From an uncultured virus (IMG/VR IMGVR_UViG_3300047094_002559) (taxonomy: Duplodnaviria > Heunggongvirae > Uroviricota > Caudoviricetes): 62,297 bases of DNA. Position 1 is the stretch's first letter. Each line of letters opens with the position of its first letter. Below the pieces are notes generated by a model. The model was given only the letters and a program-made list of their open reading frames with translations, was not told where the DNA came from and searched no databases. This document shows, piece after piece, positions 3,553 to 55,164 of the stretch. The position numbers and the translations under genes are program-made. Location: the IMG/VR virus record IMGVR_UViG_3300047094_002559. One strand, written 5' to 3'.

Positions 3553-3559
3553 GGGTATC

Positions 3560-29489: not shown

Positions 29490-30458
29490 TTACGCGATGC
29501 CAGTCATCGTGTAGGTCAGCTTCTGCACGCCGAGGGTGTTGCCGATCGTGAGACCGACCTGCTCCTGGGCACGCATGCGGATGATGTCGTACTCCTTCTT
29601 GATGGTGACGGTGATGTCTTCGAGCATCAGCGCGTTGCCAAGGAATTCCTTGGGCGCGAACTGATACATGACGCCGTTTGCGACGAGTCCGTTCTTGATG
29701 GTGCTGACGAACGGGACGCCGAACATCTCGAACTTCTCGAGGGCCTTGAGACCCTTGCGGGCCACGTCCTGCGACAAGTCGCCGCCCATCTCCAAACGCT
29801 CCCAACCGAGAAACTCGTTGGCAGTGCGTTGATTGACGAGGACGACACCGATCGGCAGCTGGCGCTCAATGAGGTAGCTGACGGCGCGCTTCAGGCCCTT
29901 GCGGGAGAAGGTAGCGCTGGTCATCGTGACGTTCTGGTAGGCGCCCGGAGAGGCACTTTCCACCGTCGCGTAGGCCGTGGCACCACCCACGATGCGGTCG
30001 ATCTCCGTAAGGAACGAAGTGTCTTCCGCCGTGTGGATGTCACGCAGCATGTTGTCGTTGACGATCTGCCGAAGGTCCGTCTTGTAGGTCCGGAGCTGGT
30101 TGATGTTCTTCGTCGCTTCCTCGGTCGTGATCACCGACAGGAGCACCACATACTTCTCCGCGCGATACGAGAAGGAGTTCGGGGTGTCGTTGTAGGGGAT
30201 GACGCGAGCAGGCGGCGAGTCCGGTTCGAGTTCGTACCAAACTCCGGGGAGTTCCGAGTCCCCGAAATAATCGAGGTCCTCGTTGGTAATCATGTCGAAT
30301 GACAGAATCGCGCGCTGGAAGCCCTCCTCCCGGATTTGTGTCCGGGTGGCCTTCGAGGTCGCGGTGGATGCTTTCTTCACAACGCCGTCGTCCGATGAGA
30401 GGACGTCGTCGATGAGTTGCTTCTTGATGAGCAGGTCTTTTGCAGCTTGTTCGTTCAT
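29490..30458 (-). CDS. Major capsid protein (HK97-fold predicted)
   Basis: 322 aa in protease-scaffold-decoration-capsid order with a strong terminator. 'DIHTAEDTSFL', 'FGVPFVSTIK', 'RAQEQVGLTIGN..GV'. Confidence 0.8.
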   Translation of the reverse strand: MNEQAAKDLLIKKQLIDDVLSSDDGVVKKASTATSKATRTQIREEGFQRAILSFDMITNEDLDYFGDSELPGVWYELEPDSPPARVIPYNDTPNSFSYRAEKYVVLLSVITTEEATKNINQLRTYKTDLRQIVNDNMLRDIHTAEDTSFLTEIDRIVGGATAYATVESASPGAYQNVTMTSATFSRKGLKRAVSYLIERQLPIGVVLVNQRTANEFLGWERLEMGGDLSQDVARKGLKALEKFEMFGVPFVSTIKNGLVANGVMYQFAPKEFLGNALMLEDITVTIKKEYDIIRMRAQEQVGLTIGNTLGVQKLTYTMTGIA

Positions 30459-32738: not shown

Positions 32739-34205
32739 TTATGCGCGACGAATCATCAAACTCGCGGCGAGCCCTCGAAACAGTGTGCCGGCGTTGACGT
32801 CCGGCAGGTCTTTGATCTGGTGTGCGGCTTTCACTAAGTAGTGTCCGTAAGCTTCTATCAGACCGCCGTAGTAGTCGTCGATATTTTTTTTGAGGCCCGG
32901 ACGCGCAGCGATGCTGCCGCTCTTGATGATCACCACGCGCATCGCACGATCAGACGCCTGACCTGTGCCCATTCCAAGGTCGCCGCCAACCTCGTCCATG
33001 AGACGATCGATGTTGTCCTTGCCGGGCGAGAAGGAGCAGCCTGTTTCGTCCGGCGCCACAGCGTCAGCGACATCCTCGCCGCACGCGCAGCCGCCGCTGT
33101 GCATCATCCCCGCCAGCAGCGAAGGCAGCTTGATTTCAGCAGCGTCGCACAGTGCCGCGTTCTTCTCGATGTCGGCTATCTTCTGTCCGGTCACGAGCGA
33201 AGCGAACGTGTAAAAATTGATGACCATGGCGCGCTTGGCCAGCTCGCCTCCGGCGTTGCGGAAGTCCACCTCGGCCAGTGTGTCTATCTGGTCGGCTGAA
33301 AGATCTTGCGGCGCCAGCTTGCACAGCACTTCCCGCGTCACCGCGTCAGCACGCTTCACGAATTCATCAGCCGCGGCGAGCTTCTGCAGTGTGAGATTTT
33401 CCCACTCGCTGAACGGCACGACGCGCGCATTGCCGAACTGAAACGCGGCCCATTGTGCGCCGGTAATGATCGCGTCGCCCGACGCAGCCTTCGCCATCTC
33501 GCCCTCCGGAAATGTGTAGCTCAGGAAAGTGGCGATGCGGTCAGCGCGTCGTTTGACTTCGCTGATGTCGAAGAACTTCACGTCGTCCTCGTTGCGGGCG
33601 TAGGCATACTTCTCAAACCCATCCACGAACCGCAGCATGTTGTTCTTCAGATGGCTGCAGTAGTCCGTTGTGCGCTTGCTCTTTTTCTTGCAGCACGAGC
33701 ACTCGTCATGCGGGAGGCGCATGGACATCGACCAAGACAGCTCCTCGCCGGCCTTCGCCTTCTTATACATGTCCGGCGCCTTGTCCTTTTCCACCCAGGC
33801 GATCAACTCGCCGCGGTGCATCTTCGGATTCACCCGGGCCAGTCGGACGGTGCCGATGCCCTGAGTCACGGGGTTGCGATTTTTGTGTTCGCGGAATACG
33901 CATCCAAATTTTTCGAACGTGCCGTGGTGACGGTCCAGCGATCGCCGGCTGGCTGAGTCGCCGTTGCGGTTCGGCCCAAAAGTTTCTTCCTCGCCCATCG
34001 TGATCAGATGCACGCCAAACTGATCATCCGGAGGCATGTGCTCCTGCAGATCCAGGCGCGAGATGACGTCCGATGCCGACTTCGTAAATCCACTGCGGCC
34101 CCGGTCGCGCTCGAAGAATGTGAAAGCCTTGCCGTCAGCCGCCCGCAGCAGCTCCGCGTGGTCGTCCGTGGCGAATGATTTTTCGAGTTCGCGTTCGATG
34201 TGCAT
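32739..34205 (-). CDS. Prohead maturation protease (HK97/herpes-assemblin-like) with Zn-finger insertion
   Basis: 'GPNRNGD', 'FREH', 'SWSMSM..PHDECSCC...CSHL', 'FFDISEV..RADRIA'. Upstream of scaffold and capsid. Confidence 0.75.
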   Translation of the reverse strand: MHIERELEKSFATDDHAELLRAADGKAFTFFERDRGRSGFTKSASDVISRLDLQEHMPPDDQFGVHLITMGEEETFGPNRNGDSASRRSLDRHHGTFEKFGCVFREHKNRNPVTQGIGTVRLARVNPKMHRGELIAWVEKDKAPDMYKKAKAGEELSWSMSMRLPHDECSCCKKKSKRTTDYCSHLKNNMLRFVDGFEKYAYARNEDDVKFFDISEVKRRADRIATFLSYTFPEGEMAKAASGDAIITGAQWAAFQFGNARVVPFSEWENLTLQKLAAADEFVKRADAVTREVLCKLAPQDLSADQIDTLAEVDFRNAGGELAKRAMVINFYTFASLVTGQKIADIEKNAALCDAAEIKLPSLLAGMMHSGGCACGEDVADAVAPDETGCSFSPGKDNIDRLMDEVGGDLGMGTGQASDRAMRVVIIKSGSIAARPGLKKNIDDYYGGLIEAYGHYLVKAAHQIKDLPDVNAGTLFRGLAASLMIRRA

Positions 34206-37554: not shown

Positions 37555-40125
37555 TCAGTTTTCCTGCGCCGAATACTGATCCGGTTTGAACTGCTGCAGC
37601 ATGCGCAGCAGATTTTCGCCAGCGCGGGTCGCGAGTTCCGCGAGTTCCTGCTCGAAGTCGATCAGGTCTTCCTTGCCGTAGATCTCCTCGAAGTCCGCCG
37701 GCCGGTAGCGCAGCAGAAACAGAGTGCGGAAGTAGCGGTCCACGCCGGCCTCGAAGTCCGGGATGTAGAGCTTGATCTGATCGACAATGCCGTGACTGGT
37801 GGTGGCCATCTGCGACACAGCGCCGTGGTCCAGGATGTGCGGCATACCATACTGACTCGACATCTGCGCCAGTTCCTCGGGCGAACTGTTCATGATCATG
37901 TCCATCGGCAGCAGCGACTCGGCGGTCTCAGAATTCCTACCGCGCGGTCCCTGATAGGTGTCGCCGTAGCGTGACTGCTGGTCCGGGCGTCGCGGTGTGT
38001 GCGTGGAGAGAATCTGCTGCTGAGGCGCGTCCAGCCGGACGTTCAGCTCGGGATCAAAGCTCTGCACCCACTGCTCCATGCCCTCCGGCCTGGTCAGGTA
38101 TGCCTGCTTGGTGACGGAGTCGAAGATGCGGTAGGTCACGTCGCCGTCGACAGCCTTGTTGAGAATCTTGCCTGCGACATCGGTGCGCAGCGAGAAGTCT
38201 TCCGCCAGTGCGAGATGCGCCTCCAGCCACCCGAGGTTGCGAGCCGCCTTGAGCAGCGTGCCGTCCTCGCGATGCTCCACGTCGAATGTGGGCCCGGCCT
38301 TCGGACGCACCGTCACCTCGTTGGCGGTCGTGATGCCGCCGGCCGTGCGCATCCACTGCTCGACGCCGGCTGACGACATCGGGAACCGTGTGCACTTGGG
38401 CTCGACCTTGCGGACTCCGTCGTCGTCGTCACGCTTCACGTCACAGTCCACTTCCAGGAAGAACGTCTCATCGCTGAGGTATCGACCGGACGTCTCACCG
38501 CGACCAGGCGCGTAGAACAGCTTGGTCTGGTCGCCGTAGCCGATGGAGATCGTGATCACGGAGCACTCACCGTCCTTCGCAATGTCGGCCACGTGAAATG
38601 GGCGCGAGATGCTGAGGTCCCGGGTGTCGAGCGCGACGTAGCACTTCCCGGTCGAAATGGCGTCGCCAGTCACTGCCTTGGCATTTGTGTCCTGGTCGAT
38701 CGTTTCATCGCCGAACACATCCTCGCCCGAGGGCAGCCTGAACAACTGCTTGTCGCTCGGGAAGTAGGCATACTCGATTTTGCTGGGCGAGCCGCTGCCG
38801 CCGCAGGGCGACGGTCCGCTGTTGTCGAAAAGCAGGTGGTCGCTCTCGCGCAGCAGGAGTGCTTCCTCCGTGTCACCATTTGCCATGAGCAGTTGCACCT
38901 TGCCCGGGGACGACAGTTCCTTGATGGTGCCGGCGCCGACTTCCTCGATGACGGTGTTGACGCTGTCGGCGAGCCGGTGGTCGACCAGGTCGTAGCCTTT
39001 GTCGAAGATGCGCTCGCGCTGGGCCGCGGATTTGGCCAGCTCCGGCGACAGGATGATGGAGATCGCAGGACGCGGGCCGGACGCCTCTTTGGCCAGCCAG
39101 CCGTTCACCGTCTCGAGATCCTCCTTCGTGTAATTGGATGCGACGGCCGCGGCGACGCCCGGACTGTTGCCGATGAATGCGGCGAGCTTCTCCAGTGCCT
39201 CGGGGCCGTGCGCGTCGATCACCAGCGGCAGCAGCTTGCGCATCGGCGCGTCGTCCGCGCTGTGCAGCATGAGCTCCCTCCAGATCGAACCGTCGGCCGC
39301 GGCCTTCTTGAAAGCTTCCGCGTGCGGCGCGTTCTCTTTCTTCTGCGTCGTAACGCGAAGAGCGTGGTGGCGCATCAAATCGCGCAGCTGTTCGCGAGTA
39401 AGTAGATTTTTCTCTTCGATGTGATCCAGCTTCAGGCCAGTGATGGCTTTGTCGGCCAATTCGTCCGACATGAGATGGCGGTTCTGCTTGCCGCTTGCGA
39501 TTGCTTCATGCACCTCGTCATCAGACTCGTAAATTTCCGCGTCAGCATGCGTCTCGACATCCTCCGCGCCGGGCTTCTTGCTCTGTTTGTCCCCAGCATA
39601 CTTCTCGGCGAGATACTCGCGCGTCTCAGCGTCCGCCTTCTCATTGATATCGGCTAATGTCAGACGATCAGCCGCATACTTGACGCGCTGCGGATAGGCC
39701 AGCCGGTCCATGTAGGCATCCGCCTGTCGATACCGGTTGCGGTCGACGGGCTCGCCGGCGCTCTCGTGATTGCCGCGCACCAGGTATGCGCACCAGTCCT
39801 CGGTGAGTGGGACGAAGCGTTTGACGTCCGTGCGGTAGAGCATGTCGGCCGCCTTGATCTCGCCGTTGACGAAAAACACCGGGGCGTAGAGCAGGTTGCT
39901 GTTCACCCGGAACGCGAAGATGCCGACCATCTTGGTCGCCTTCTCGTTGCGATGCACGATCTCGAAGCCGAGCCGGAACGGATCCTGGAACAGAATCTTG
40001 GCCTTGTTGGCGACGATTGCGTAGCTCTGGTCCATGAAGGACTTCTGGACAGCGCCGTAGTCGACGCCCTCCTGCGAGGCCGCCTGCTTCCACTGGTAGT
40101 TGGGGTCGATGATTTCGGTGGTCAT
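37555..40125 (-). CDS. Large putative head protein with KxA motifs
   Basis: 856 aa. WKQAAS, VKYAA, FKKAAA, EKLAA, AKEAS, AKSAA, LKAAR, TKQAY. Confidence 0.75.
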   Translation of the reverse strand: MTTEIIDPNYQWKQAASQEGVDYGAVQKSFMDQSYAIVANKAKILFQDPFRLGFEIVHRNEKATKMVGIFAFRVNSNLLYAPVFFVNGEIKAADMLYRTDVKRFVPLTEDWCAYLVRGNHESAGEPVDRNRYRQADAYMDRLAYPQRVKYAADRLTLADINEKADAETREYLAEKYAGDKQSKKPGAEDVETHADAEIYESDDEVHEAIASGKQNRHLMSDELADKAITGLKLDHIEEKNLLTREQLRDLMRHHALRVTTQKKENAPHAEAFKKAAADGSIWRELMLHSADDAPMRKLLPLVIDAHGPEALEKLAAFIGNSPGVAAAVASNYTKEDLETVNGWLAKEASGPRPAISIILSPELAKSAAQRERIFDKGYDLVDHRLADSVNTVIEEVGAGTIKELSSPGKVQLLMANGDTEEALLLRESDHLLFDNSGPSPCGGSGSPSKIEYAYFPSDKQLFRLPSGEDVFGDETIDQDTNAKAVTGDAISTGKCYVALDTRDLSISRPFHVADIAKDGECSVITISIGYGDQTKLFYAPGRGETSGRYLSDETFFLEVDCDVKRDDDDGVRKVEPKCTRFPMSSAGVEQWMRTAGGITTANEVTVRPKAGPTFDVEHREDGTLLKAARNLGWLEAHLALAEDFSLRTDVAGKILNKAVDGDVTYRIFDSVTKQAYLTRPEGMEQWVQSFDPELNVRLDAPQQQILSTHTPRRPDQQSRYGDTYQGPRGRNSETAESLLPMDMIMNSSPEELAQMSSQYGMPHILDHGAVSQMATTSHGIVDQIKLYIPDFEAGVDRYFRTLFLLRYRPADFEEIYGKEDLIDFEQELAELATRAGENLLRMLQQFKPDQYSAQEN

Positions 40126-40142: not shown

Positions 40143-40823
40143 TCAGAACAAATTGGTGCTCCCGGGGTGCTTCTCTCGATGCTTCCTTGCTGCCTCGATT
40201 ATTGCGTGCTGCTTGTCGGACATCTGAGCACCTCCGTTTCCTTGCTGTTCCTGCTGTTTGAATAATTTGCTTCTCAACTGCTCCAATCCGGTGACCCCGC
40301 CGACGCCAATCGCGCCCATACCGGCCAGATTACCAGCCTGTCCTGCGCGACCAAGCGCCGTCGGCAACGGTGTCATTTGCGTTCCGTGCAGCAGATGGGA
40401 ACCGCTTTCTATCATATCCCTAGGAGCGCGCAAAGCGCCGCGTCCAAAGTTGAGAAGCGCCTTGAGGATGTTGCTTCCTGCGCCTGCACTTTTACCCATT
40501 CGCCGATGCTCCATGCCGACGGTCGGCACCAGCGGATCCAGGTCCGCGTAATCCGAGATCGCGTTGCTTACGGCCGCGCCGCCAACACCGACCCCGCCGC
40601 CGATCAGCGCGCCGACCAGTGCGCGCAGCAGGACGGACTTCTGATCCTTGCCGCCCAGCGCAGAAGGCGCTCCAACAGCTGAAGCCGCACCCAACATCGC
40701 GCCTGGTATCGCGCCGGCCAGTCCACCCGCCGCGAGTTTTAGGTTTTTCCTTCGCTGCCTTACTTCGTCGTAGGAGCGTGCGGATGCTGATTTTTCGAGC
40801 AGTGCGAAAGGTGTCATGATCAT
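40143..40823 (-). CDS. Two-module glycine-zipper protein
   Basis: MTPFALLEKSASA leader; second module begins at MGKSAG. Confidence 0.7.
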   Translation of the reverse strand: MIMTPFALLEKSASARSYDEVRQRRKNLKLAAGGLAGAIPGAMLGAASAVGAPSALGGKDQKSVLLRALVGALIGGGVGVGGAAVSNAISDYADLDPLVPTVGMEHRRMGKSAGAGSNILKALLNFGRGALRAPRDMIESGSHLLHGTQMTPLPTALGRAGQAGNLAGMGAIGVGGVTGLEQLRSKLFKQQEQQGNGGAQMSDKQHAIIEAARKHREKHPGSTNLF

Positions 40824-40865: not shown

Positions 40866-41909
40866 TCAAATGTAGTGACGGTTCTCGTTCGCGTCATACT
40901 CGTAGTAGTTGGTGTCGCCGCCTTTTTTCCAACTGCGTGCGATCCCACTGAGGAACCCAGGCTGAAACCGGCGGCTGTTCTGTTGCTCCCACGTTCCGAT
41001 GGTGCCGGGCAGTTGTTTCTCGATTCGGTCAGCCAGCAGCGTTGGGTCCATCTTCAGCGCCATGCGCTCGAGTCCCGTCATCTTGTCCAGCCCCTGCTGT
41101 ATCTTGGCCTGGGCGCCGGCGTAGCCGCGCGTGCGGACGCTCTGCTCGTCGTAGGGCTTGTCGCGTAAAATGGAGTGCCCCAGCATTCCTGCTCCAATCG
41201 TTGGAAACAGCCACGGAAACACGTTGGAGAAAACCTTGCCGAAACTGCCGGACTTCAGCATCGCTTGCGGCAGCATCAGTCCGTGCATGCGCCGGTCCAC
41301 GCGGTCGTTGATCAGCGTGTCAGGATCCTCGAACAGCGACTGGATATACTTCAATTTGGACAGCGGCTTGTAGGGCTTGCTGGAGTATTGATCCGCCAGG
41401 TCCGCAGTCGCCGCGTCGTTCTGGCGAAGATACTGCCGCGCCAGTCCGGGGCGAGTGAGATAGTTAGAATCCATCTGCCCAAGGGACATCATGTCGGCCC
41501 CGGCCCCGCGCGCGCCGATGAGCACGTCCTCCTGCAACCTAGCCCGGTTTCCCGGGCGGTTCGCGCGATACGCGCTGATCAGGCTCGGCGCCGTCATCAG
41601 TGCCCCCAGCACTGGCATGGAGGCATTCATCGCAAGGTTCGATCCCGGCACGTCGTATCCGGCGAGTCCCGCCGCCATCCCGCCAAGGCCGTAGCCCATC
41701 AGCCCCTTGTTGAGCGTGGTCATCTTGTCCGTGACCGGGTCGTGAAACAGGCGCGACGCTTTCCCCCAGAAGCTGCCTGGTTGTGTCTTCGTCGCTACGC
41801 GCTTCCAGAGACCGTCGCGCACCAGACTGTGCAGGCCTCGCAGAATTGTTCCGCCGGAGGACGACTTGGTCATGTCAGCCTCGCTCGCGAGTTGGGCGAA
41901 AGCAGTCAT
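40866..41909 (-). CDS. Two-module membrane-helix protein
   Basis: MTAFAQL...TKSS leader; second module begins at MLKSGS. Hydrophobic helices in each module. Confidence 0.7.
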   Translation of the reverse strand: MTAFAQLASEADMTKSSSGGTILRGLHSLVRDGLWKRVATKTQPGSFWGKASRLFHDPVTDKMTTLNKGLMGYGLGGMAAGLAGYDVPGSNLAMNASMPVLGALMTAPSLISAYRANRPGNRARLQEDVLIGARGAGADMMSLGQMDSNYLTRPGLARQYLRQNDAATADLADQYSSKPYKPLSKLKYIQSLFEDPDTLINDRVDRRMHGLMLPQAMLKSGSFGKVFSNVFPWLFPTIGAGMLGHSILRDKPYDEQSVRTRGYAGAQAKIQQGLDKMTGLERMALKMDPTLLADRIEKQLPGTIGTWEQQNSRRFQPGFLSGIARSWKKGGDTNYYEYDANENRHYI

Positions 41910-41920: not shown

Positions 41921-43582
41921 TCAGATGGTCTGGCGCAGTCGGGCCAAGATGGATGCCTTGTTCTGCTCGAGCATCGCCTGCAGCGCTGCGGCCGACGGCT
42001 GCTCGCCCTGTCCCCTGAACACATTCAAGATCCTTCCCAGGATGCCGGGATCTTGCGGCGCGTTCTGCAGCGCTGCCTGAATGCCGTAGTCGACGCCGGT
42101 GTTGTAGCCTTTATCGAGACCTTCGGTCAGCCCGCTGTTGCGGCCCATGCGGTTGCTGCCGTAGAGCGCGACGCCGCCTGCGCCGGCGCCGAGTCCCAGT
42201 TTAACACCCGGCGAAAGGCCTTCCCTCTCTATCTTGTTCAGAATTTCACGAGCTTCCGGCGACGCCTTCGCAGTAGCAGTCCCTGGCAGCGCCTTCGTCA
42301 CAGGATTCGGAAGCATCGTCATCTTAATCTCGGGTCCTGCACGTCTCGTCGCGGCGCTTACGGCGGGTTGCCCACGTTTCGCAACTGCCGACCCCACCCG
42401 TTTCAACACCTCCAGCCCGCCTGCTTCCTTCTGCATGTCGAAGCACGCGAAGGGCGTCAGGCTGGCGCGCTTCGTTTGCCAGGGAGCATTCGCAGCCGCC
42501 AGCACGCTGCCGCCGCTACGCTGAGCATTTTGCATGTTCGTCCACTTGGCGACGTCCATTTTACTATTTGGATTATAAGCGTTCGCTTTGCCTTTGCCGT
42601 GATATTTGGCCCACATTGCAGGATCTGGAGCGCCACTAGGTGCTGGCGCAGCGCCCGGCCGGGCCGCTGTCGTTCCCGCCCACGCCGGTGCGGCTGCTGG
42701 GGGACTGCCCGCTCCAAGGGCCGCCATTGCCGGGGGTGCAGGTGTGTCACTCGGTCCGGCTGCCGGGGGCTGGTTCAGCTTACCTTGCCACTGCGGCTTA
42801 CCATACGTATCCGGAGTTCCGTAGGCCCACGACGGCTTGGCTCCGGAATCGCCTCCAAGCGGCGACGAACTCGGCGAAATCGGCGACGGCGAAAGCGGCG
42901 GTGAACCGCCTCCAAGAGTTATCAGCTGCGGCGAACTAGGTTCACTGGTTGCGCCACCCCCAGTTCCGGTCGGCTCATCGAAGCCGCCTGCACTGCCGCC
43001 GCTGGTCATAGGGGCGGCAGCAGGGGCGGCAGCTGGTGCCGCTTTTCCAGAGGTGGCATCGATGAGGCCTTTCCCCATATTCGCAGCCCCATCACCCAAT
43101 GCACCGACGGCCCCGGGAATCAGTCCAGCAGTGTGTCCAACTGCCCCGACTACGCCGCCAGCCGCTTGTAATCCCCCACCCACAGCCTGTCCCACGTTGC
43201 GACCGACAGCCTGCAGGCCATCCCTGCCGCCATTCCATGCACCATCCGCCGCGCCCTGCCCGACCGCTCCCCAGTCGATGTCACCAGGTTGTTGAAATTG
43301 CCGCTTCAGCGCGTTCGCGCCGCCCGATATCATACCGCCAGCAGCGCGAAAAGGAGTCGCTATCCCTTGAGCGGCGGCACCTAGAGCGCCTGACGCCGCA
43401 TTACCCACGCCTGATACGGTGTTACCGATCGCGTTACCGATCGGTTTGATATTGTTGTTCCAAAAATTGTCGAACGCCGGTCCCGCCTGTTTCACGAGCG
43501 GATTCAGATGTCGTGCGTGCCGTCTGCCGGCACTTTTTGGCATGAGTTCGAGCTTAGCAAACGGCGTGATGTAGCGATTCAT
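41921..43582 (-). CDS. Gly/Pro/Ala-rich multi-module protein
   Basis: ITPFAKL..PKSA, VKQAG, TKRAS-LTPFA..QKEAG. Start 43582 chosen from promoter spacing. Confidence 0.7.
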   Translation of the reverse strand: MNRYITPFAKLELMPKSAGRRHARHLNPLVKQAGPAFDNFWNNNIKPIGNAIGNTVSGVGNAASGALGAAAQGIATPFRAAGGMISGGANALKRQFQQPGDIDWGAVGQGAADGAWNGGRDGLQAVGRNVGQAVGGGLQAAGGVVGAVGHTAGLIPGAVGALGDGAANMGKGLIDATSGKAAPAAAPAAAPMTSGGSAGGFDEPTGTGGGATSEPSSPQLITLGGGSPPLSPSPISPSSSPLGGDSGAKPSWAYGTPDTYGKPQWQGKLNQPPAAGPSDTPAPPAMAALGAGSPPAAAPAWAGTTAARPGAAPAPSGAPDPAMWAKYHGKGKANAYNPNSKMDVAKWTNMQNAQRSGGSVLAAANAPWQTKRASLTPFACFDMQKEAGGLEVLKRVGSAVAKRGQPAVSAATRRAGPEIKMTMLPNPVTKALPGTATAKASPEAREILNKIEREGLSPGVKLGLGAGAGGVALYGSNRMGRNSGLTEGLDKGYNTGVDYGIQAALQNAPQDPGILGRILNVFRGQGEQPSAAALQAMLEQNKASILARLRQTI

Positions 43583-43589
43583 GCCGGGC

Positions 43590-43618
43590 ATTCTACGCGA
43601 AACCAAACACGCAGGCAA
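43590..43618 (-). promoter_or_regulatory. sigma70-like promoter TTGCCT-N17-TAGAAT, 7 nt before ATG
   Basis: Near-consensus -10 box, intergenic. Confidence 0.7.
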
Positions 43619-43630
43619 TATCAATTACGC

Positions 43631-45484
43631 TCAGAATTTGCCAGTCGTCTGCACGTGTTCGCCGAAGCCGCCCTTGCCTGCGTCTGCTCCGAACGCAAGT
43701 CTGGGCCCGAAGTGATAGTTCTCGGCCACGTTCGTCTCATCGCCGCGCTCCAGCGAGCCGCGCAGCTGACTGGACAGGTAAGACGTGCCCAGCGACGCGA
43801 GCCAGTCATCGGACGCGTGCGAGGCGACGCGCAGCCGCTGCATCTCCGGGCGGAACCACGGCTGTTGCGACGACACCGGCACCTTGGTCACGCCGGCGCT
43901 CTCCAGGTTCTTGGCCATGCTCGGCGTCAGCTTTGTGCCCACCGTGTAGTGCAGCGCCGGCGCCTGCAGAAATTTGCCGACCGCCTTCGCCGCCGGCATC
44001 TCCGCGGTGTCCTCCGGCGGACGATACTTGGCGAGGAACTCGCTCTCGTGCACCAGGTCGTCCGGCAGCCACGGCGAGTCCTCGTCGGGGTCCTCGATGA
44101 GATAGTTGTCCAACGCGGCGCGTGTGATCATCTCCACATTCCTGGCATCTGGACTCTGTCCGGAATCACGCAGCATTTGGGATAGGCGCGTCGCGTAATA
44201 CTTGCGCCCTTCGCCGAGCCCGCGCAGCCGGACGATGTCGGCAGGATTCACCAGCCCGTCAGACAGGGTGTCGCCGGCCTCCACGCGCTGTCCCACTTTC
44301 ACAGTCGGCTGAAATCCAGGCAGGGCAAAATGCTGCGTGCCGTTCACGTTGATAAACGTGCCGCCCTGCGGAGCGTCTTCGATCTTGTCCACGGTCCCCT
44401 CGTTCTCCGCAACGGTCGCGCGGTCTTTGAACTCCTCCGGGATCGACAGGAACTGCGTGATGTAGTTGAGGCCGGAGAATGACTTCCTTCCCTTGGCTAC
44501 GCCCGCTTCGTGTTTTACATTTAAGGCCCCCTGTACGATGGGCTCGTTGATTGCGGCGGAGGCGGTGACGACAGCAGACTCACCGATGGACGGGAACTGT
44601 CCGTCGGCTTTGACGCCGGCACACTTGGCGCACAGCCCGTGCGGCGCGCGGCAAGTCAGCGCGCTGCGCACCATGATCGGTTTCTTCTGCCGCCGCAGCT
44701 GCGCGAGCAGGTGCTTGTCGATGACAGTGCCGCCCGGGATGTCACCGACGCCGCGAGCCAGCACGCGTCCTGTCAGGTCGTCGTCGGTAGCCTCGGCGGC
44801 CAGTCCGTTCGTCACGCCGCAGTCCTGCGTGGTGATGTTAAAATCCAGACCTGCCTGTGTGGTAATCTTGAGCAGGTCGCCGCCCTTTGCGGTCGCTTTT
44901 TTCGTCGATACGACCGATGCGCGCGCGCCGTAGGTGCCGGCCAGCGTCTCCGCGGGCCGGACGCCGTCGCCGTAACTGCTGCGCACGAACAGCGGGATGA
45001 CGCGTCCTTTGGCGTCCTGGAACACACCCGGCGTGGAAAGGATTGCCTTGAGATTGCTGGCCTTGCCGCGCGCGCCGGAGGCCACGGCCAGCGCGAACGC
45101 GTTGCGACTCTTCATCGCCGCCGTCATTGTGTCCTTCTCGATCAGGTCAGAATAGCGGGTGAGGATCTCGCCGCGCTGCGCTTCGAAGTCCTCGGTCGGC
45201 AGCTTCTGCTTGCGCAGTCCAGCAAGCTCCGCGTCCATCTTGGCGTAGTAGGATGAGGTGTCGATGACCTGCCGCGTATCAGAGGGGCCGGTGGTGTAGC
45301 CCTGCCGCCAGCTCGCGCGACGTCCAAGGTCGCCCAGTTGTTTTACGATGCGCGGGAATTCATACGGGTGGTGCGCGGCGACCTCGGCCATGATCTCCGA
45401 CATGCCGCGCTTCCCCAGGTCGTAGGTGTCCTTCTGCATCTCCGGAGGTAGGATTCGTGAAACGGCGAAATCGACAGCGCGCAT
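43631..45484 (-). CDS. rpoC: Phage multi-subunit RNA polymerase beta' subunit, C-terminal half (split gene)
   Basis: 'SGARG'; bridge helix 'GARASVVSTKKATAKGGDL'; 'DCG'; Zn site 'RSALTC...GLCAKCAG'; trigger loop 'INEPIVQGALNVKH'; 'V..GQRVEAGD.LSDG..NP'. No NADFDGD. Confidence 0.9.
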   Translation of the reverse strand: MRAVDFAVSRILPPEMQKDTYDLGKRGMSEIMAEVAAHHPYEFPRIVKQLGDLGRRASWRQGYTTGPSDTRQVIDTSSYYAKMDAELAGLRKQKLPTEDFEAQRGEILTRYSDLIEKDTMTAAMKSRNAFALAVASGARGKASNLKAILSTPGVFQDAKGRVIPLFVRSSYGDGVRPAETLAGTYGARASVVSTKKATAKGGDLLKITTQAGLDFNITTQDCGVTNGLAAEATDDDLTGRVLARGVGDIPGGTVIDKHLLAQLRRQKKPIMVRSALTCRAPHGLCAKCAGVKADGQFPSIGESAVVTASAAINEPIVQGALNVKHEAGVAKGRKSFSGLNYITQFLSIPEEFKDRATVAENEGTVDKIEDAPQGGTFINVNGTQHFALPGFQPTVKVGQRVEAGDTLSDGLVNPADIVRLRGLGEGRKYYATRLSQMLRDSGQSPDARNVEMITRAALDNYLIEDPDEDSPWLPDDLVHESEFLAKYRPPEDTAEMPAAKAVGKFLQAPALHYTVGTKLTPSMAKNLESAGVTKVPVSSQQPWFRPEMQRLRVASHASDDWLASLGTSYLSSQLRGSLERGDETNVAENYHFGPRLAFGADAGKGGFGEHVQTTGKF

Positions 45485-45490
45485 CCCGGA

Positions 45491-45519
45491 ACGATACCCG
45501 CGAATGTCGCAAGCGGCAA
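45491..45519 (-). promoter_or_regulatory. sigma70-like promoter TTGCCG-N17-TATCGT, 6 nt before the RNAP ATG
   Basis: Lies in the divergent intergenic region. Confidence 0.65.
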
Positions 45520-45555
45520 GCTCAGAACGCTATTCAATCAATTGAACGAAAAACC

Positions 45556-45584
45556 TTGCTGGGCGGTATTGCATCTGACAAGCT
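45556..45584 (+). promoter_or_regulatory. Candidate promoter TTGCTG-N17-CAAGCT for the MarR-like gene
   Basis: 17-nt spacer; 13 nt before ATG. Confidence 0.35.
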
Positions 45585-45597
45585 GCTCCGTCGAAAC

Positions 45598-46008
45598 ATG
45601 AAAACCATCACCGCCATCCTGCGTAAGATCACAGCCTGCAAACTCATCAAAATGCCGCAGTTGATGTTGCTGCTCATGGCCAGCAAGGACAAGACTGGCT
45701 GGAACGTGGCAGACATCGCTGACGCCACCGGAGCCAAGCCGTCCGTGATCACGATGGCCAAGAACAAGCTGATCCGCGACGCGCTGATCATCGAGCATGT
45801 TCCGCATCGAGACCGGCGAAGAACGAAAGTCTACCTCACAGACGCTGGGCGATATTCGACCAGATTCATGTGGAAGGCTCTGCGCGACCTGGTCGACGCC
45901 GAAGAGATCATTCGACCCGCACTCGGCGGGCTACGGCGCAATCTGCGCGACCTGCAATCTACGCTGCCCAAAGCCTGTTGCGTTCTTAGAAATCCTCCCC
46001 GTCAATGA
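45598..46008 (+). CDS. MarR-like winged-helix regulator
   Basis: 'VADIADATG...SVITMAKNKL...LI.....DRRRTKVYLTDAG' is the MarR signature. The only convincing plus-strand gene. Confidence 0.8.
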   Translation: MKTITAILRKITACKLIKMPQLMLLLMASKDKTGWNVADIADATGAKPSVITMAKNKLIRDALIIEHVPHRDRRRTKVYLTDAGRYSTRFMWKALRDLVDAEEIIRPALGGLRRNLRDLQSTLPKACCVLRNPPRQ

Positions 46009-47627: not shown

Positions 47628-47685
47628 TTAGTATTGGTGTTGTTGTTGGTGTTCGTGCGTTGGGCGGTATGCCCTCAGCAACATA

Positions 47686-47713
47686 TTATGACACCGCAAC
47701 ACCCCGAATTGCA
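47686..47713 (-). promoter_or_regulatory. TGCAATTC-N13-GTCATAA motif, copy 1
   Basis: Identical boxes and spacing at 55165-55192. Confidence 0.55.
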
Positions 47714-47719: not shown

Positions 47720-50257
47720 TCAGTCCTTGTTCAGCTTGCTGGAGATACCAGCGCCGGCAGTCCCCAAGCCGGCGAGTCCAAGCAGGGCCCCGACTGTTTT
47801 CAGTTTGGGCGACAGCTTCGTGCTGACCGCCGAAAGCAGCGAGCCGTAACCTCTGACGCTGTTTGCCTGCAGAAATTTCCGCAGCCCTTTGCCCGCCATA
47901 AACGGAGCATCGTCGGCATTGACGCCGCGCATCATCCGCCGCTCGCGGTAGAAAAACGGAGCCAGCTTATCGAAAGTGCTCCCTTGGACTTTACCCTCTT
48001 CCAGTCGCTTGAGATAAGGCTCGAACCGCTGAAGCATAGACACGTCTTCCGGCGCGCGGGCAATACGCAGCGCCTCGTCGGCCCCCATGACTCTCGATAC
48101 TTCCGGAGTCAGGCGCAGTTGCGGATCTGCGGCGTGCGACAACATCTCGCGCGACAGCAGCGCACGAGGCGTCTTTGCCCCTTCAGCGTAGTGCGTCTGG
48201 TTGTCCATGATTGCCCAGCGCTTCTTCTGATCCACTATGTCTCCCATACCGAGTCCAACCTTCAGCGTAGTCTTCCAGTCATCCGACAACGACGTCAGCG
48301 GAAACCTGGAAGTAAGCACGTGCGCCGGGACGCCCATGATCCGCAAGTTCGACATGGCCTTCGCGGCGTCAGCATACTTGTCCACGATGCCCAGGTATTC
48401 CCGGATTCTGGGCGCGTCGGCAGTCCAAAGATGATCCGGATATTTCTGCGCGTAACGTCGCGTCGCGTTGACGTAGTCACGAGCCAGCGGTCGAATTTTC
48501 GCAAAAGAACGTCCAGTGTCGTAGATGCCTGCGCCGAGCACGGCGGCGCCGCCACCTGCGCCGATGGCGACGTTGTCTCGAGTATTCGTCGCAGCCGCCT
48601 TGTTCAGCCGCAAGTCAATGGGCGCCTGCGCCGTCTGGTTGCCTCCGAACAGTTTCGACAGCAATGCTCCACCACCTGCCAGCGCGCCGGCGCCGAGTGC
48701 CAGTTTACCGGCGCCATGCCGCAGCGCCGCGCTCCGGCCGGCGCGCAGCTGGCCCTCCAGCAGCGACTTGAACATGCCGCGACCGCCTTGAATGTCCTGC
48801 AGCGTCAGCGCGGCCTGCTGCGCGCGTCCGCCTTGGAGCTGCGGCAGTTCTTTCAGCAGATTGGCGAACCCGTCGTAATCGCCAGACTGCAGCGTCTTTA
48901 CACCGCGCAGTTCGAGATAGTCACGAATACCATCCAGTCCGCGGCGGACGACGCTCTCCCCTTTTGCGTCCTGGAACACCGAAGGGTTCATCCAGTTCCT
49001 TGCCGCCGATTCAGCCAGATGCTGGTCCGCGGGAAGTCCCTGGTTGATCGTCGCCCGCAGTTTATTCTCGAACCCATGAATGCCTCGGTCTGCGATCAGA
49101 TCCGACTCCGACCACGGAACATTTTGGCGGGCCTTGAAAACCTGCTCATCGTCGATCAGCGCGATCGGTGCGCCGCCGTGAGCCAGAGCTTCGAACGGAC
49201 TAGACCCGCCCATCCCCATGACGTGCAAGTCGGAGTTACCGATCAGCGAGTTGAACCCGGACGGCCCTCCAGTCTTTGCAGTCGTACCTGGAACGATGAA
49301 AATGTTCTTCTGCGGTCCGCCTGCGTGTGCGATCGCCGTTTCGCGCGCCAGATTTGGACCCTGGCCTCCGACTCCGAGAATGACGTAATCGTCGAGGTTG
49401 TGACCTTTGGCCTTCAGCGCTTCGGCAACCCACCGCGCGCGGGCGCCGACAGTATCGCCGCGGGTCGCGCCGGAGACTGTGATGATCTTCTTGCCGCGGA
49501 AGGTGTCGGGCGTGATCCCCTGGAACCCGCCGTGTTGCGTCATGTGCTGCGCCAGAAATTTCGAGTAGGCGTCGCGGTCCATGAGCGGGCTGAGATTTTT
49601 CGTCTCCACCAGCGGGTGTGCGCGCCCCATGTAGTGCAGCTTGCCGCCGGACAGCACATGCGACGGCCCTGGGTCGAAGTTGCCGTAAGTCGCCGCGTGC
49701 GTGTCGCGCAGCCCGGAAATCCGGCGCGCATCCCCAGTCGCCATGTAGCCCGTCGCGTCGTTGCGTCCATCCGGTTGGAATTGCAGAAAGTTTTCGAACC
49801 GCTGCCGAAAATGAGGATCCTGCTGTCGCACATTCTCCCCGCGCATGCGATCCATCCAGCTCGCGCGCGTCGGCGTGACATCGTGTGCGCGTTCCGGATC
49901 CAGCAGCCCCCATCCCGTGTCGACGCCAGTCAAGAACCGCTTCCCTTTCATGGCCTTCGCCGCCTCGTCTGATATCTTGCCCTCGTAGGAAATCACCGGG
50001 GCGTCGTTGACGTTCATTCGTCCCAAAAAGTTGTCGCGATTTTGCGCCTTCAGTTCCTCCAGGATGCGGCGGATCTGCGCCGCCGGCTCTTTGTGCCCGC
50101 CTCCCATAGGAGCTGCGGCGCCGTAAGTCAGCAGCACGTTGCGGTTGTTCAGGTCCGCCAATCCAGAACGACCCAGCGCGCCACCGAGCCCGAGCATGCC
50201 AGCGCCAGCGATTCCGGACGGCCATGGATTCTCGGAGGTTGAAGCTTGCTTGCTCAT
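47720..50257 (-). CDS. Modular protein with GT28/MGDG-synthase-like glycosyltransferase module
   Basis: 'VLLTY...MGGGH..PA', 'ITVSGATRG', 'SDLHVMGMGGSSPFEALAHG.P'. Modules open at SKQAS and NKAAA and are bounded by glycine-zipper helices. Confidence 0.7.
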   Translation of the reverse strand: MSKQASTSENPWPSGIAGAGMLGLGGALGRSGLADLNNRNVLLTYGAAAPMGGGHKEPAAQIRRILEELKAQNRDNFLGRMNVNDAPVISYEGKISDEAAKAMKGKRFLTGVDTGWGLLDPERAHDVTPTRASWMDRMRGENVRQQDPHFRQRFENFLQFQPDGRNDATGYMATGDARRISGLRDTHAATYGNFDPGPSHVLSGGKLHYMGRAHPLVETKNLSPLMDRDAYSKFLAQHMTQHGGFQGITPDTFRGKKIITVSGATRGDTVGARARWVAEALKAKGHNLDDYVILGVGGQGPNLARETAIAHAGGPQKNIFIVPGTTAKTGGPSGFNSLIGNSDLHVMGMGGSSPFEALAHGGAPIALIDDEQVFKARQNVPWSESDLIADRGIHGFENKLRATINQGLPADQHLAESAARNWMNPSVFQDAKGESVVRRGLDGIRDYLELRGVKTLQSGDYDGFANLLKELPQLQGGRAQQAALTLQDIQGGRGMFKSLLEGQLRAGRSAALRHGAGKLALGAGALAGGGALLSKLFGGNQTAQAPIDLRLNKAAATNTRDNVAIGAGGGAAVLGAGIYDTGRSFAKIRPLARDYVNATRRYAQKYPDHLWTADAPRIREYLGIVDKYADAAKAMSNLRIMGVPAHVLTSRFPLTSLSDDWKTTLKVGLGMGDIVDQKKRWAIMDNQTHYAEGAKTPRALLSREMLSHAADPQLRLTPEVSRVMGADEALRIARAPEDVSMLQRFEPYLKRLEEGKVQGSTFDKLAPFFYRERRMMRGVNADDAPFMAGKGLRKFLQANSVRGYGSLLSAVSTKLSPKLKTVGALLGLAGLGTAGAGISSKLNKD

Positions 50258-53200
50258 CGGTTTCGGTTGTGCGGCATCTGCGCGGCATTATGATACCTGA
50301 GCACGTCGGGATCGACAACTCCTTTCGGCATGTGCAGCCGGAAGCCGGTCGGGATGTGCGTCACACCCACGATGCCTTTGCCGTCGTCCGAGTCGATCGA
50401 CCAGTCCTCCGCGTGCCGACGCATGTTCTGCCGAATCAGCTTGTGCTTCATCGAGTAGTCGCCGGCGTCCGAGTGCTCCTTGGCGGCTCTCAGCGCCGGG
50501 AGCGCCGGATGCGCCTGGCCCTGCTTGAACAGGTCCAGCATTCCCTGTATCGGCGCCGCGGGAGGCGGAGGCGGAGGCAGCGCCGGGATTGCCGGTGGCG
50601 TGACCAGCCCTTTGAGCATGTCCTGGATCTTCTGCGACGGCATGCGCGACTTTATTCCCAGCCGCATGACATCTGGATGCTTAAAGAAGTATCGACGCAG
50701 AACTTCGGGCGTGGAGTCGAATGCCGCAGCGAACGACTCTGCGCCGCCCACGCCTGACTTCCGAACATTCCGGATATTCTCCAACGCCTGTGCGATGCTC
50801 TGCAGACGCTTGGCGCTCGCCTGCTTGGCGAACTTCTCCTGCACGGGGGCAGCCTGCTGCACGATGCCTGGAATGACGCGACGCTGCCACTGCTTCAGCG
50901 ACTTCAGGTAGGCAGGATCGGCGGCTGGATCACGCATCCCGCGCAGCATACGCTGCGCATCTACCGGCACCGATTTAATCGAATTCTCGAACACCGCCGG
51001 GTCTGCGTGATGCACATTCATGGATTCCAACCATTTGTCGTAAGCCTCCGGACTGGTGATTCGACTACCTGTATCCTTGAACTGCTGCGCCTGGATCGTC
51101 GACATGTAACCGCGATGCTCACCGGGCTTCAAATCGTGCGGAAGCTTGTCCATAAAGTTCTGACGCTCCACGTATCCCGGGTCTTTGGCTGGTCCTACAA
51201 AATAAGCGTCGTCATGCTCACCAACCGCCCAGTTATCACCCGCAGCGTGGTTGACTTCGTGGGCCAGCACGTCCGCCGGCTTGGCCCCTGCTGCCGCCAT
51301 CTCTGGCGACTCGTCGCGTAAAAATTTACCCGCATCCGCAGGCATGAAAACAGCGCTGCCGTGTATGCCTTGCTGCACAAACGGAGCGTATTGACTGTTT
51401 GATGTCGGATTGCTAGTGACCACGGTCACCGGACGCTGCCAGCCGTCCGTCGTGTTCGGCAGCTTGTTCTTCAGATTGTATTGCGCTGCCTGTTCCAGCT
51501 GCGCCGGAAATTGATCCCCGTAATATGGCGTTTTGAAATCGGCTGGATTTACAGTCGATTTTGAATCCATCAGGTTTACCTCGGCACCTGGCGGCTTTCC
51601 CGGCGCGGTAGGCCGTGGCTTGGCGTTCCAGTTCATGGGAATTTTACCCGTAACAGTCCGCGGACGCCTTACCGGCTCCAGCATTCCGACAGTTCCTGCC
51701 TTGTGCATCTCCTGCCACGCTGTCGCGGCTTTTTCGAATGCGTTTTCCACGGGGACGTAAGCGGCGGATTTCTCGACGCCTTCCTCCTCATCTTTCTGGC
51801 GTCGCCGGCCGGAGATCCAGCCGCCTGCCATGCCCGACAGCACGCTGGGCAACACCCCGCCCGCAAGGTAGGTCGACAGCGCACTCAGCAGGTCCTTCTT
51901 CCCCTCGGCGCTCAGCGACCCGTCGCCAAGACCCTTCAGGTGCCGCAGCGCGTGGTAGCTGGCGCCCGCTTCGGGGCCGACCGTTCCCAGACTGGACAGC
52001 AGGCCGATGCCGGTGCCATACAACCCGCCCTTCAGCGTGCTGCCGCTCGCCAGGCCGGCCGCCATCGAACCAGCGGCCGCCATCGGCGCCACCCATCCCT
52101 GGTGAGGGTAGATGTGCCGCTGTAGGAAGCGCAGCATGCCCGGGGTCTCCTCGATCTTCGCATGCCCTGCCTCGTGTCCGATGACCGGCGCTCCGGCGCG
52201 CTCGTTCGCCACCATGACTCCGCTGCGCATCAGCCGCTGCAGCTTCTCCATGGTGCGTCCGTATTCCCCCTTCGTCGTCGGGGTGCGCGGCGTGACATCC
52301 CGCAACCCGGAGAATTGCCGCATGAACTGCAGCCCTTCCTTCTCGGTGTTGGGCTTGTAAAAAAATGCGTTGGCCGTCCCATCGGCGTTCGACGCCAGCA
52401 TCAGCGGCTCGGTACCTGAGATGCTTGCGATCGTGCCTGGCCACTTGTCGACACCAAGCGGCGGAGTATTCGACACCTCGCGCACCGCCCAGTTCTGCGA
52501 GGCGCTGCGTCCGAGCGATCCAAGCAGCGCAGCAGCGATAGTGAGCGGGATGACCGGGGAGTTGCGCTGTTCGGCGAATTCGGCCTGCTTGTACAAATCC
52601 GGCAGCCCCTTGTATCCCGGCGTGAAGCCGTGCGGTCCGGCGGCCAGGATACGCTGCTGCACCGGGTTGCCAGTCTGCGGAAGATTGCGGACGTATGACG
52701 AAAACGATGGCGCTCTGGCTCCCTTGAAGTATGCCATCGCTTCCGGCCTCGCTCCTGCTTGCTGCAGAAATTGCAGGGCTGAGTTGTTGGCCCCCAGTTC
52801 GTTCATCACCTTGTCCATGTGCGGCAGCCCCGGCACTTCGTGTCCGCCCATGCTGTCACCGATTCCAGCGCGGCGCATCGCCCGGTGGTTCATGTGGTGT
52901 CCGCCCTCATGGAGGAGCGAAGCGATTGGCGACGGGTTGGTGCCGCCAGGCGTCCCTTGCCCGTATGTGAAGCGGAAGGCGCCGGCGTCTGGCTGCATGG
53001 TCATCGTGTTTCTTGGTCGACCTTTTCCGACGTCGAGAACAGTGTCCCGGAACGCCTGCTGCGTGGGGTCCCAGGATCCTCGCGAATAGCCGGACGTTCC
53101 AACCGGAAGCTTCGCGCCGGTGTTCGGCAGTCGCGCTCCGACCGTTTCCGGAATCACCCGCCGCACCGCTGCGCCTTCGTTTCGCAACTGCCGAAGGAAT

Positions 53201-53835
53201 GCCTTGATCGGTCCGGTGTGTCCGGTGAGCGCCTTGAATCCAAGCACCGCCTTCTTGTGCATCTGGCGGCGGGCCTGTGCCTCCTCGTTGTCCAGTGCGC
53301 TCACAATCCCTGACATCGACACGCCCAGGAGCGGGTGCAGTCCGGACGCGGCGAGATGAAACGCGTCGCCCGCTTCGGCGATCGAACTGTAGCCCTTGTA
53401 TTTGCGGTCCCGCATCGTCTCGTAGGCGTTGACCGCGCCGAGCCGGTTGCTGCCGCCGAACCAGCCCGGGTTGTCCAGCAGCGCCTTGTCGTCCAGCTCG
53501 CGCAGCCGCTTGCGCTTCTCCGTGTCGTAGGACTTCTGGATGCTCCGCAGCTCCAGGTGTCGCAGCAACTGCACGATCGCGAGCGGGCCGAGCATTGCCG
53601 CGGCGCGCACCGGTTTGGACTGGTCTGCCGTGTAGGCCCCGCCGACGGCACCGAGGCCCATGGCCAGCAGCTGCGTGACCCGAGGATTGTCGACAAGCAC
53701 CGAGGGATCGCGACCCACCCGCGCAGCCATCACCTGGGCTGCGCCGGCACGACGGGCCCCCGAAGGCATCAGCGGAATAAAGTCCGCGAGCAACGGGCCG
53801 ATTCCTGTTCCTAGCGATTCGGGAGTTTGCGACAC
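50254..53835 (-). CDS. Modular polyprotein-like protein with three HExxH metallopeptidase-like modules
   Basis: HEGGH, HEAGH, HEVNH. Boundaries HKKAV, YKQAE, EKSAA, EKAAT, AKQAS, FKQGQ. GTG start at 53835 chosen from promoter spacing. Confidence 0.7.
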   Translation of the reverse strand: MSQTPESLGTGIGPLLADFIPLMPSGARRAGAAQVMAARVGRDPSVLVDNPRVTQLLAMGLGAVGGAYTADQSKPVRAAAMLGPLAIVQLLRHLELRSIQKSYDTEKRKRLRELDDKALLDNPGWFGGSNRLGAVNAYETMRDRKYKGYSSIAEAGDAFHLAASGLHPLLGVSMSGIVSALDNEEAQARRQMHKKAVLGFKALTGHTGPIKAFLRQLRNEGAAVRRVIPETVGARLPNTGAKLPVGTSGYSRGSWDPTQQAFRDTVLDVGKGRPRNTMTMQPDAGAFRFTYGQGTPGGTNPSPIASLLHEGGHHMNHRAMRRAGIGDSMGGHEVPGLPHMDKVMNELGANNSALQFLQQAGARPEAMAYFKGARAPSFSSYVRNLPQTGNPVQQRILAAGPHGFTPGYKGLPDLYKQAEFAEQRNSPVIPLTIAAALLGSLGRSASQNWAVREVSNTPPLGVDKWPGTIASISGTEPLMLASNADGTANAFFYKPNTEKEGLQFMRQFSGLRDVTPRTPTTKGEYGRTMEKLQRLMRSGVMVANERAGAPVIGHEAGHAKIEETPGMLRFLQRHIYPHQGWVAPMAAAGSMAAGLASGSTLKGGLYGTGIGLLSSLGTVGPEAGASYHALRHLKGLGDGSLSAEGKKDLLSALSTYLAGGVLPSVLSGMAGGWISGRRRQKDEEEGVEKSAAYVPVENAFEKAATAWQEMHKAGTVGMLEPVRRPRTVTGKIPMNWNAKPRPTAPGKPPGAEVNLMDSKSTVNPADFKTPYYGDQFPAQLEQAAQYNLKNKLPNTTDGWQRPVTVVTSNPTSNSQYAPFVQQGIHGSAVFMPADAGKFLRDESPEMAAAGAKPADVLAHEVNHAAGDNWAVGEHDDAYFVGPAKDPGYVERQNFMDKLPHDLKPGEHRGYMSTIQAQQFKDTGSRITSPEAYDKWLESMNVHHADPAVFENSIKSVPVDAQRMLRGMRDPAADPAYLKSLKQWQRRVIPGIVQQAAPVQEKFAKQASAKRLQSIAQALENIRNVRKSGVGGAESFAAAFDSTPEVLRRYFFKHPDVMRLGIKSRMPSQKIQDMLKGLVTPPAIPALPPPPPPAAPIQGMLDLFKQGQAHPALPALRAAKEHSDAGDYSMKHKLIRQNMRRHAEDWSIDSDDGKGIVGVTHIPTGFRLHMPKGVVDPDVLRYHNAAQMPHNRNR

Positions 53836-53841
53836 TCCGGG

Positions 53842-53870
53842 AGAGTAGCGGGATTGTGCAACGAGTTCAA
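53842..53870 (-). promoter_or_regulatory. sigma70-like promoter TTGAAC-N17-TACTCT, 6 nt before GTG
   Basis: Follows a hairpin. Confidence 0.6.
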
Positions 53871-53879
53871 CCACGTAAA

Positions 53880-53920
53880 GAAGAGCGACCACCGCCGGCT
53901 CCCAGGGCGGGAGCCGGCGG
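53880..53920 (-). terminator. Probable terminator hairpin
   Basis: 12-bp stem CCGCCGGCTCCC/GGGAGCCGGCGG after the 53937 stop; T-tract is imperfect. Confidence 0.55.
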
Positions 53921-53936
53921 GCGCGGCGGAAGCGGC

Positions 53937-55158: not shown

Positions 55159-55164
55159 AATTTC

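Follow-up and report, generated by a model that had tools for sequence, protein, structure and literature searches.

Here we report that an open reading frame (ORF) in 62,297 nucleotides of DNA from an uncultured tailed virus (IMG/VR record IMGVR_UViG_3300047094_002559; this whole stretch is hereafter termed the window) encodes the C-terminal half of an RNA polymerase beta' subunit (beta'C; positions 43631..45484, minus strand, equivalent to genome 22709-24562). We place a probability of roughly 0.8 on the reading that this ORF is the beta'C of the phage's only multi-subunit RNA polymerase, a dispersed five-gene variant of the type found in Salmonella phage Arash. A sequence-only reading had proposed a split beta' half that begins after the catalytic barrel, lies among head genes and has its partner subunits elsewhere in the genome. 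These proposals are borne out below, with the nearest kin being the Arash-like phages, which carry a two-polypeptide enzyme, rather than the phiKZ/AR9-like phages that it cited. The window corresponds to bases 5896-68192, read on the reverse strand, of a virus record of 184,016 bp that has 127-bp direct terminal repeats and is rated 100% complete, with a G+C content of about 62% and nearly all genes on the same strand. Within the enzyme that we propose, beta'C would contribute the rim of the secondary channel, the bridge helix, a second zinc site, the trigger loop and the jaw, joining an N-terminal beta' half (beta'N) that carries the clamp and the NADFDGD barrel, together with three pieces of beta, in a five-polypeptide catalytic core without alpha or omega.

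Homology and active-site motifs of beta'C

Starting at an ATG and comprising 617 amino acids (aa), the ORF matched 78 distinct chains at E<=1 in a phmmer search of PDB sequences, and the best 60 of these 78 were all RNA polymerase beta'. Query residues 23-484 align to residues 614-1098 of the top chain (8i23_D, E 7.6e-36) and query residues 114-333 pair with E. coli beta' 706-944, giving an overall span of approximately residues 590-1100 of bacterial RNA polymerase beta'. A family profile constructed from 22 sequences reached E 7e-85 against PDB chains, covering profile positions 3-490, where 490 is the maximum in any chain; positions 3-338 align to E. coli beta' 572-946. Among the PHROGs, positions 616-1106 of the 1216 in phrog_25354 match beta'C at E 1.2e-36.

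Within this span, two strings that the sequence-only reading had described as diverged active-site motifs are aligned with their cellular counterparts: STKKATAKGG (residues 193-202) with the beta' string DTALRTADSG, and NEPIVQGALNVKH (residues 313-325) with GEPGTQLTMRTFH. We take the first to be part of the bridge helix and the second part of the trigger loop, names that rest on E. coli coordinates. The corresponding regions comprise residues 184-216 (44837..44935, minus strand, as are all parts of beta'C given here) and residues 309-340 (44465..44560). The ORF contains exactly four cysteines, Cys222 (44819..44821) and Cys278, Cys285 and Cys288 (44621..44653), which align to the CG...C......C..C pattern of beta' and are conserved in 90% or more of 22 relatives, in agreement with the zinc site that had been suggested. 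A further conserved element, SGARGK (residues 136-141; 45062..45079), precedes the bridge-helix region. No NADFDGD-like motif occurs within beta'C, the sole D.D.D being found at residue 465 in a non-homologous stretch. Thus beta'C is collinear with the C-terminal module of cellular-type beta', including the bridge helix, four-cysteine zinc site and trigger loop, over approximately 490 residues, with an identity to bacterial rpoC products of only ~25-29%. The last ~128 residues (490-617; 43634..44017) are conserved within the family only, and gave no sequence match to cellular beta' with either the family profile or the PDB chains.

The funnel and jaw, also claimed from the sequence alone, are less clearly defined. 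The aligned span covers both regions, and the curated domain models remain under their cut-offs when applied to beta'C itself: Pfam Rpb1_4 gave E 0.0083 with 16.5 bits against a cut-off of 24.8, Rpb1_5 gave 27.8 bits against 28.5, and the NCBIfam rpoC model (rpoC_TIGR) gave 157 bits against 963.5. All 13 of the longer relatives scanned exceed the Rpb1_5 cut-off, at 45-77 bits. beta'C very likely functions as a polymerase subunit.

Partner subunits elsewhere in the genome

beta'C, PF00623 and PF00562 each match exactly once in the complete genome, and the search for partners located four further genes. A single-copy beta'N gene (genome 178250-181384) encodes NADFDGD at residues 308-314; its residues 23-316 and 957-1041 align to residues 193-478 and 477-562 of 8i23_D, leaving about 170 N-terminal residues of bacterial beta' without a counterpart. 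The beta subunit is divided over three genes encoding proteins of 495, 603 and 637 aa: piece 1 (genome 117448-118935), in which residues ~51-213 align to beta ~63-260 at E 2e-6; piece 2 (genome 119475-121286), in which residues 410-576 align to E. coli beta 419-576; and piece 3, or betaC (genome 134297-136210), in which residues 6-528 align to beta 646-1171 at E 2.7e-46. Models for alpha and omega found no match in the complete genome, and matched in 14 of 14 control genomes. Since there is a single gene set, one core would have to serve all phage-directed transcription.

The two beta' halves are complementary: beta'N stops near reference residue 564 and beta'C begins near residue 590, some 25 residues later. 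This is nearly the position at which cyanobacterial rpoC1 and rpoC2 (gamma and beta') are divided, the family profile starting only 10-17 residues ahead of the RpoC2-type chain start in three PDB entries that include a gamma chain as well. It could be supposed that beta'C works instead in a hybrid enzyme, replacing or complementing part of the host beta', and its sequence is indeed nearer to bacterial beta' than to phiKZ-type subunits. However, with only ~25-29% identity to bacterial beta', and with a full phage set of beta and beta'N that co-occurs with beta'C across the family, we consider such a hybrid very improbable.

The beta'N gene is further distinguished by an insert of 642 aa (genome 179192-181117) placed exactly between NADFDGD and TMSVHVP, which are uninterrupted and without insert in the closest relative. 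The insert matches LAGLIDADG and intein C-terminal domains, and its last residue is Asn, with Thr next in the chain; it is a feature of this genome rather than of the Arash-like form. Two further intein-bearing genes were noted, encoding a DnaB-like helicase (L005:8102-10573; Hint and LAGLIDADG) and a DEAD-box helicase (L006:14756-17404; Intein_splicing).

Family conservation and phylogeny

A word-indexed protein search with beta'C returned 794 proteins at E<=1e-5 among 8000 candidates scored, the best 120 ranging from 97% down to 48% identity. An exhaustive search of representatives clustered at 50% identity returned 4029, 2287 and 1012 clusters at E<=1e-3, 1e-10 and 1e-30, respectively, with the best 150 all below E 1e-95. 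By eye, approximately two thirds of these best 150 homologues are interrupted, and the interruptions cluster at query residues ~193-211 (bridge helix) and ~310-333 (trigger loop). Precomputed Hint and LAGLIDADG domains in the relatives fit inteins, so that beta'C homologues are apparent intein hot spots, some proteins having two or three inserts and a total length of up to 1600 aa.

Twenty-two uninterrupted members can be aligned over their full length, and R139, G140, G186, R188, K195, G202, K206, Q318, L321, K324 and H325 are invariant in all of them. Comparison with a 77%-identical orthologue gave nonsynonymous (dN) and synonymous (dS) rates of 0.17 and 1.35, a dN/dS of ~0.13, showing that beta'C is under purifying selection. 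Among the longer relatives, extensions are C-terminal in 12 and N-terminal in one; the only Pfam domain seen in these relatives was Rpb1_5, apart from a single DUF5661, and the 12 C-terminal extensions are unlike the 567-aa protein encoded downstream of beta'C and unlike Arash gp217 and gp218. Pieces of a 1294-aa protein encoded elsewhere in the window (50254-54138, minus strand) were found fused to beta'C in two distant relatives, at the C-terminus in P0263 (43% over 76 aa) and at the N-terminus in P0247.

The cultured members of the family are Salmonella phage Arash and Vibrio phages D69, D148 and D181. The family profile scores Arash and D69 at 1e-131 to 1e-138, three bacterial beta' sequences at 1e-71 to 1e-83 and other phage polymerases at 1e-54 to 5e-16, the last value being that for the beta'C of the Chaoshanvirus Aeromonas phage ZPAH34, which marks the phiKZ-type enzymes as distant kin. 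In a tree of 29 rows and 327 columns, with minimal bacterial sampling (three rows) and two long-branched rows, the 20 metagenomic rows formed one group with Arash and D69 (support 93/87), separate from the three bacterial rows (99/95); the long, unsplit beta' of Rhizobium phage Y65 fell outside this group.

These results bear on a further concern, already anticipated by the sequence-only reading, that beta'C is a functionless decayed fragment of a captured host rpoC. The missing catalytic half and the sub-threshold scores under curated models are what such a fragment would display. Against decay stand the intact frame, the invariant active-site residues, the low dN/dS, the hundreds of full-length relatives of the same size, the presence of the partner genes and a tree group separate from the three bacterial sequences rather than nested among them, and we regard this explanation as scarcely credible.

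Gene architecture across relatives

To place the five-gene state in context we examined relatives in IMG/VR, where 154 of 181 candidates were recognized as such; we retained 80 loci, each with 10-kb flanks, on contigs of up to 229 kb, and the counts below refer to loci rather than lineages because some loci are near-duplicates. beta'N was found in 61 of the 80 loci, and in all 61 it occupies a frame separate from that of beta'C. In 53 of the 80, betaC and beta'N share one stop-free frame, which in 35 of the 53 also holds both N-terminal parts of beta, giving products of 1460-2300 aa; beta'N is separate in eight loci, and none was found within 10 kb in the remaining 19, in some owing to the contig end. 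The usual place of the fused beta~beta'N frame is just upstream of the separate beta'C beside the head genes, and in most of the 80 relatives the polymerase genes lie between portal and head protease. Downstream of beta'C, a homologue of the 856-aa protein described below occurs in 68 of the 80 loci, and the head protease in 49.

The closest relative, a 200-kb genome (G001) with a 77%-identical beta'C, resembles the present genome in having beta and beta'N as four separate genes, with betaC at 10.3 kb, beta'N at 73.1 kb and beta'C at ~95.6 kb. The scattered five-gene state is therefore a derived trait of this sublineage and not an assembly fault.

Head-gene neighbourhood

The sequence-only reading placed beta'C among head genes, and the genes that follow it, all on the minus strand, confirm this. 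The three directly downstream encode proteins of 567 aa (41921..43624), with a TPFAxL...KxA leader; 347 aa (40866..41909), with the variant leader TAFAQL; and 226 aa (40143..40823), with a TPFAxL...KSA leader. The leader also occurs on one ORF near window 27850 (minus strand). Its bearers are otherwise unrelated to each other, and a K-K-A is present around residue 30 of the capsid protein. Common to these three adjacent genes, the leader resembles a capsid-targeting tag, and the 567-aa protein is a candidate head cargo. beta'C was itself considered as a leader-bearing cargo and rejected, its first 60 residues having no K-x-A.

Beyond these genes lies that of the 856-aa protein (37555..40125), the most conserved neighbour of beta'C and an orthologue of the Arash virion protein gp218 (profile E 1.3e-23), which gave no usable match as an Atlas search query. 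It is followed by genes for a head maturation protease-like protein matching Arash gp222 (32739..34205) and for an HK97-fold major capsid protein matching Arash gp226 (29490..30458), the latter having no Pfam match at E<=0.01.

In Arash and Vibrio phages D69, D148 and D181, as here, beta'C forms a protein of its own (~606-617 aa, with 28-29% identity across 93% of the length) that shares the family-specific C-terminal part and is encoded in the head module upstream of a gp218-like protein, protease and capsid gene, in phages with a single polymerase set. The forms differ in that beta and beta'N of Arash and D69 constitute one protein of ~1525 aa encoded beside the portal, whereas here they are four distant genes, and in that the gene directly after beta'C encodes an SNF2 helicase (gp217) in Arash and the leader-tagged 567-aa protein here.

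Evidence bearing on packaging in the virion

Whether the polymerase is a virion-packaged enzyme, as the sequence-only reading had raised, can be addressed indirectly through Arash, in which gp216 is the beta'C orthologue and gp206 the fused beta~beta'N protein (residues 30-1028 equivalent to beta and 1139-1519 to beta' 177-552). According to the Arash report, which labels gp206 and gp216 only as beta and beta', both are among the five most-detected virion proteins, with gp206 first at 3516 spectra; values for other proteins are 1210 for gp216, 1148 for gp217, 1149 for gp218, 467 for the sigma factor gp10, 1333 for the capsid protein and 877 for the portal (PMC10585845). Expressed per residue, we calculate 2.3 spectra for gp206, 2.0 for gp216 and 1.5 for the portal. 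Because beta'C belongs to a conserved cluster that also contains the genes for head cargo, head protease and capsid, and because its orthologue, together with the other polymerase subunit, the sigma orthologue and the SNF2 helicase, is abundant in Arash particles, we consider it likely, by analogy, that the polymerase of this phage is also packaged. The enzyme would then probably assemble late and be loaded into the head, to be injected along with the DNA and begin early transcription.

A number of observations, in addition to the sub-threshold domain scores, weigh against an active and packaged phage polymerase. The first residue of the beta'N insert is Glu and not Cys, Ser or Ala, so that the insert may fail to splice and the enzyme may then be inactive. 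Neither beta'C nor the other polymerase pieces carry the TPFAxL...KxA leader, and the beta and beta'N genes are located outside the head module among replication and small-gene regions; because they have moved there, the co-expression argument, valid for most relatives, is weaker here. The Arash report gives a virion proteome of 116 proteins that includes ribonucleotide reductases, and its authors allow for carry-over (PMC10585845). The sigma-like proteins described below could redirect the host polymerase instead. Finally, no RNA sequencing run is listed among those containing the window stretch.

Several of these points would favour a real but unpackaged polymerase, made after infection for middle and late genes while the host polymerase reads the early ones, with the head-gene location being historical: the polymerase pieces are without cargo leader, their genes are partly among replication regions, sigma-70-like promoter strings of the form TGCAA-N16-GTCATAAT in the genome could be read by a host enzyme, and the polymerase in the Arash proteome may be carry-over. 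Yet gp206 and gp216 exceed the portal per residue and are near 1:1 to each other, sigma and SNF2 proteins are also reported from Arash particles in the same text, and the position between portal and head protease is kept in most of the 80 relatives. On balance we judge the unpackaged alternative unlikely, and favour packaging.

Promoter and sigma-like proteins

The sequence-only reading also credited beta'C with its own promoter. No sigma-70-like consensus at 9/12 or better was found upstream of its start in a consensus scan, the best promoter-like string by eye being TTGCCG-17-TATCGT (8/12). A promoter is nevertheless implied by gene order: because the next upstream gene is on the opposite strand, beta'C needs its own transcript start in the 113-bp divergent intergenic region (45485..45597). 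The divergent gene (45598..45990, plus strand) encodes a small, regulator-like protein of 131 aa, with a conserved counterpart in a close relative (57% identity, E 1e-33) and a match to a transcriptional-regulator PHROG (E 7.5e-5). A separate transcription unit for beta'C with a divergent regulator may allow its co-production with the dispersed partners, beyond expression with the late head genes only.

A k-mer search identified a promoter-like class, TGCAA-N16-GTCATAAT, often followed by N3-TTGC. Allowing up to two mismatches it occurs seven times, in each case on the coding strand in a gap that precedes a gene (window 47685-47713 and 55164-55192, minus strand; genome 74718, 75087, 75557, 109398 and 131101); beta'C is not preceded by any of these seven genome sites. 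Eight genome positions (75078, 75538, 76319, 87642, 109722, 112870, 132163 and 182602) have G+C-rich hairpins followed by (T)CTTC-TTTACCT, a repeated terminator-like or boundary element.

The genome encodes three sigma-like ORFs. One, a sigma-70-family protein among the tail genes (window 2824-3588, minus strand; Sigma70_r3), is the orthologue of Arash gp10 (24% over 221 aa, E 9e-17), with orthologues in all five complete relatives tested as well as in Arash. The others are Sigma70_r4 ORFs at genome 173828-174724 and 167325-167675. The first of these encodes a 298-aa protein with sigma-70 region 4 only, at its C-terminus, preceded by three G-[KR]-x-N-P-x-Y-x-x-W-Y-like repeats and a cysteine cluster. 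Promoter choice would probably be made through these phage-encoded proteins, and sigma use by the phage polymerase is reasonable, if unproven.

Comparison with other phage polymerases

The phiKZ/AR9-type polymerases, as described in two reports (PMC7598289, PMC7824862), share with the present system a beta' split after the catalytic barrel and the lack of alpha and omega, and one of their enzymes is packaged; the split point is near that of cyanobacteria (PMC7598289). In contrast to the single set and three sigma-like ORFs found here, the same sources describe two paralogous sets, virion and non-virion, and no sigma-family protein. The mReC group (Weinheimer and Aylward 2020; PMC7481178) also consists of uncultured tailed phages with beta and beta' alignable to cellular enzymes. 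Its published definition calls for beta and beta' that each reach 800 aa, with NADxDGD, and its capsid proteins are of T4 type (PF07068). The present form is set apart by these published criteria, with beta in pieces of 495-637 aa and a capsid protein lacking a Pfam match, and because beta and beta' of at least 800 aa were required, that selection would probably have missed it. Phage PaBG has the UDG-PolA polymerase layout and a sigma factor in common with the present phage, and the accessible account of it makes no mention of beta or beta' genes.

We put forward a further, tentative proposal, held with rather less confidence than packaging itself. A very large world-wide clade of 150-230-kb phages may inject a ready-made, bacterial-type transcription kit, comprising a beta~beta'N and beta'C core that lacks alpha and omega, a sigma-70-family factor of its own and, in many cases, an SNF2 motor, encoded in head and tail modules; in the lake lineage described here the core would since have split into five scattered genes, one of them bearing an intein-like insert within its catalytic loop. 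Were this so, one sigma-dependent enzyme would serve the whole infection, unlike in phiKZ, N4 and crAss-like phages, and would assemble from five chains without an assembly platform. Reviews describe jumbo-phage (phiKZ-type) polymerases as two split sets without sigma, and sigma-rich large phages as being without a polymerase. The family examined here, which is very common in metagenomes, joins one bacterial-like polymerase with sigma-family proteins, with genes among those of the virion. Our literature searches, which covered texts without their supplements, found no description of a fused beta~beta'N with a separate beta'C. The minimal core, fused in most members and shattered here, could be of use at the bench in studies of polymerase assembly and capsid loading.

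Distribution and further observations

The window stretch is present in 20 sequencing runs, all of them DNA from lake or fresh water and nine of them possible sources of the sequence. In a scan of a genome collection with the single protein, the sole match was a 68%-identical beta'C with an insert on a 40-kb contig (L109) of a metagenome-assembled genome labelled Lysinibacter sp., a host hint that is weak at most. Scans for tRNA genes and Rfam families found none. A 1280-aa protein (window 55198-59040, minus strand), encoded near an amidase (61338-62270), contains a polyvalent-protein-type inorganic pyrophosphatase domain (PF18823, E 3.7e-35).

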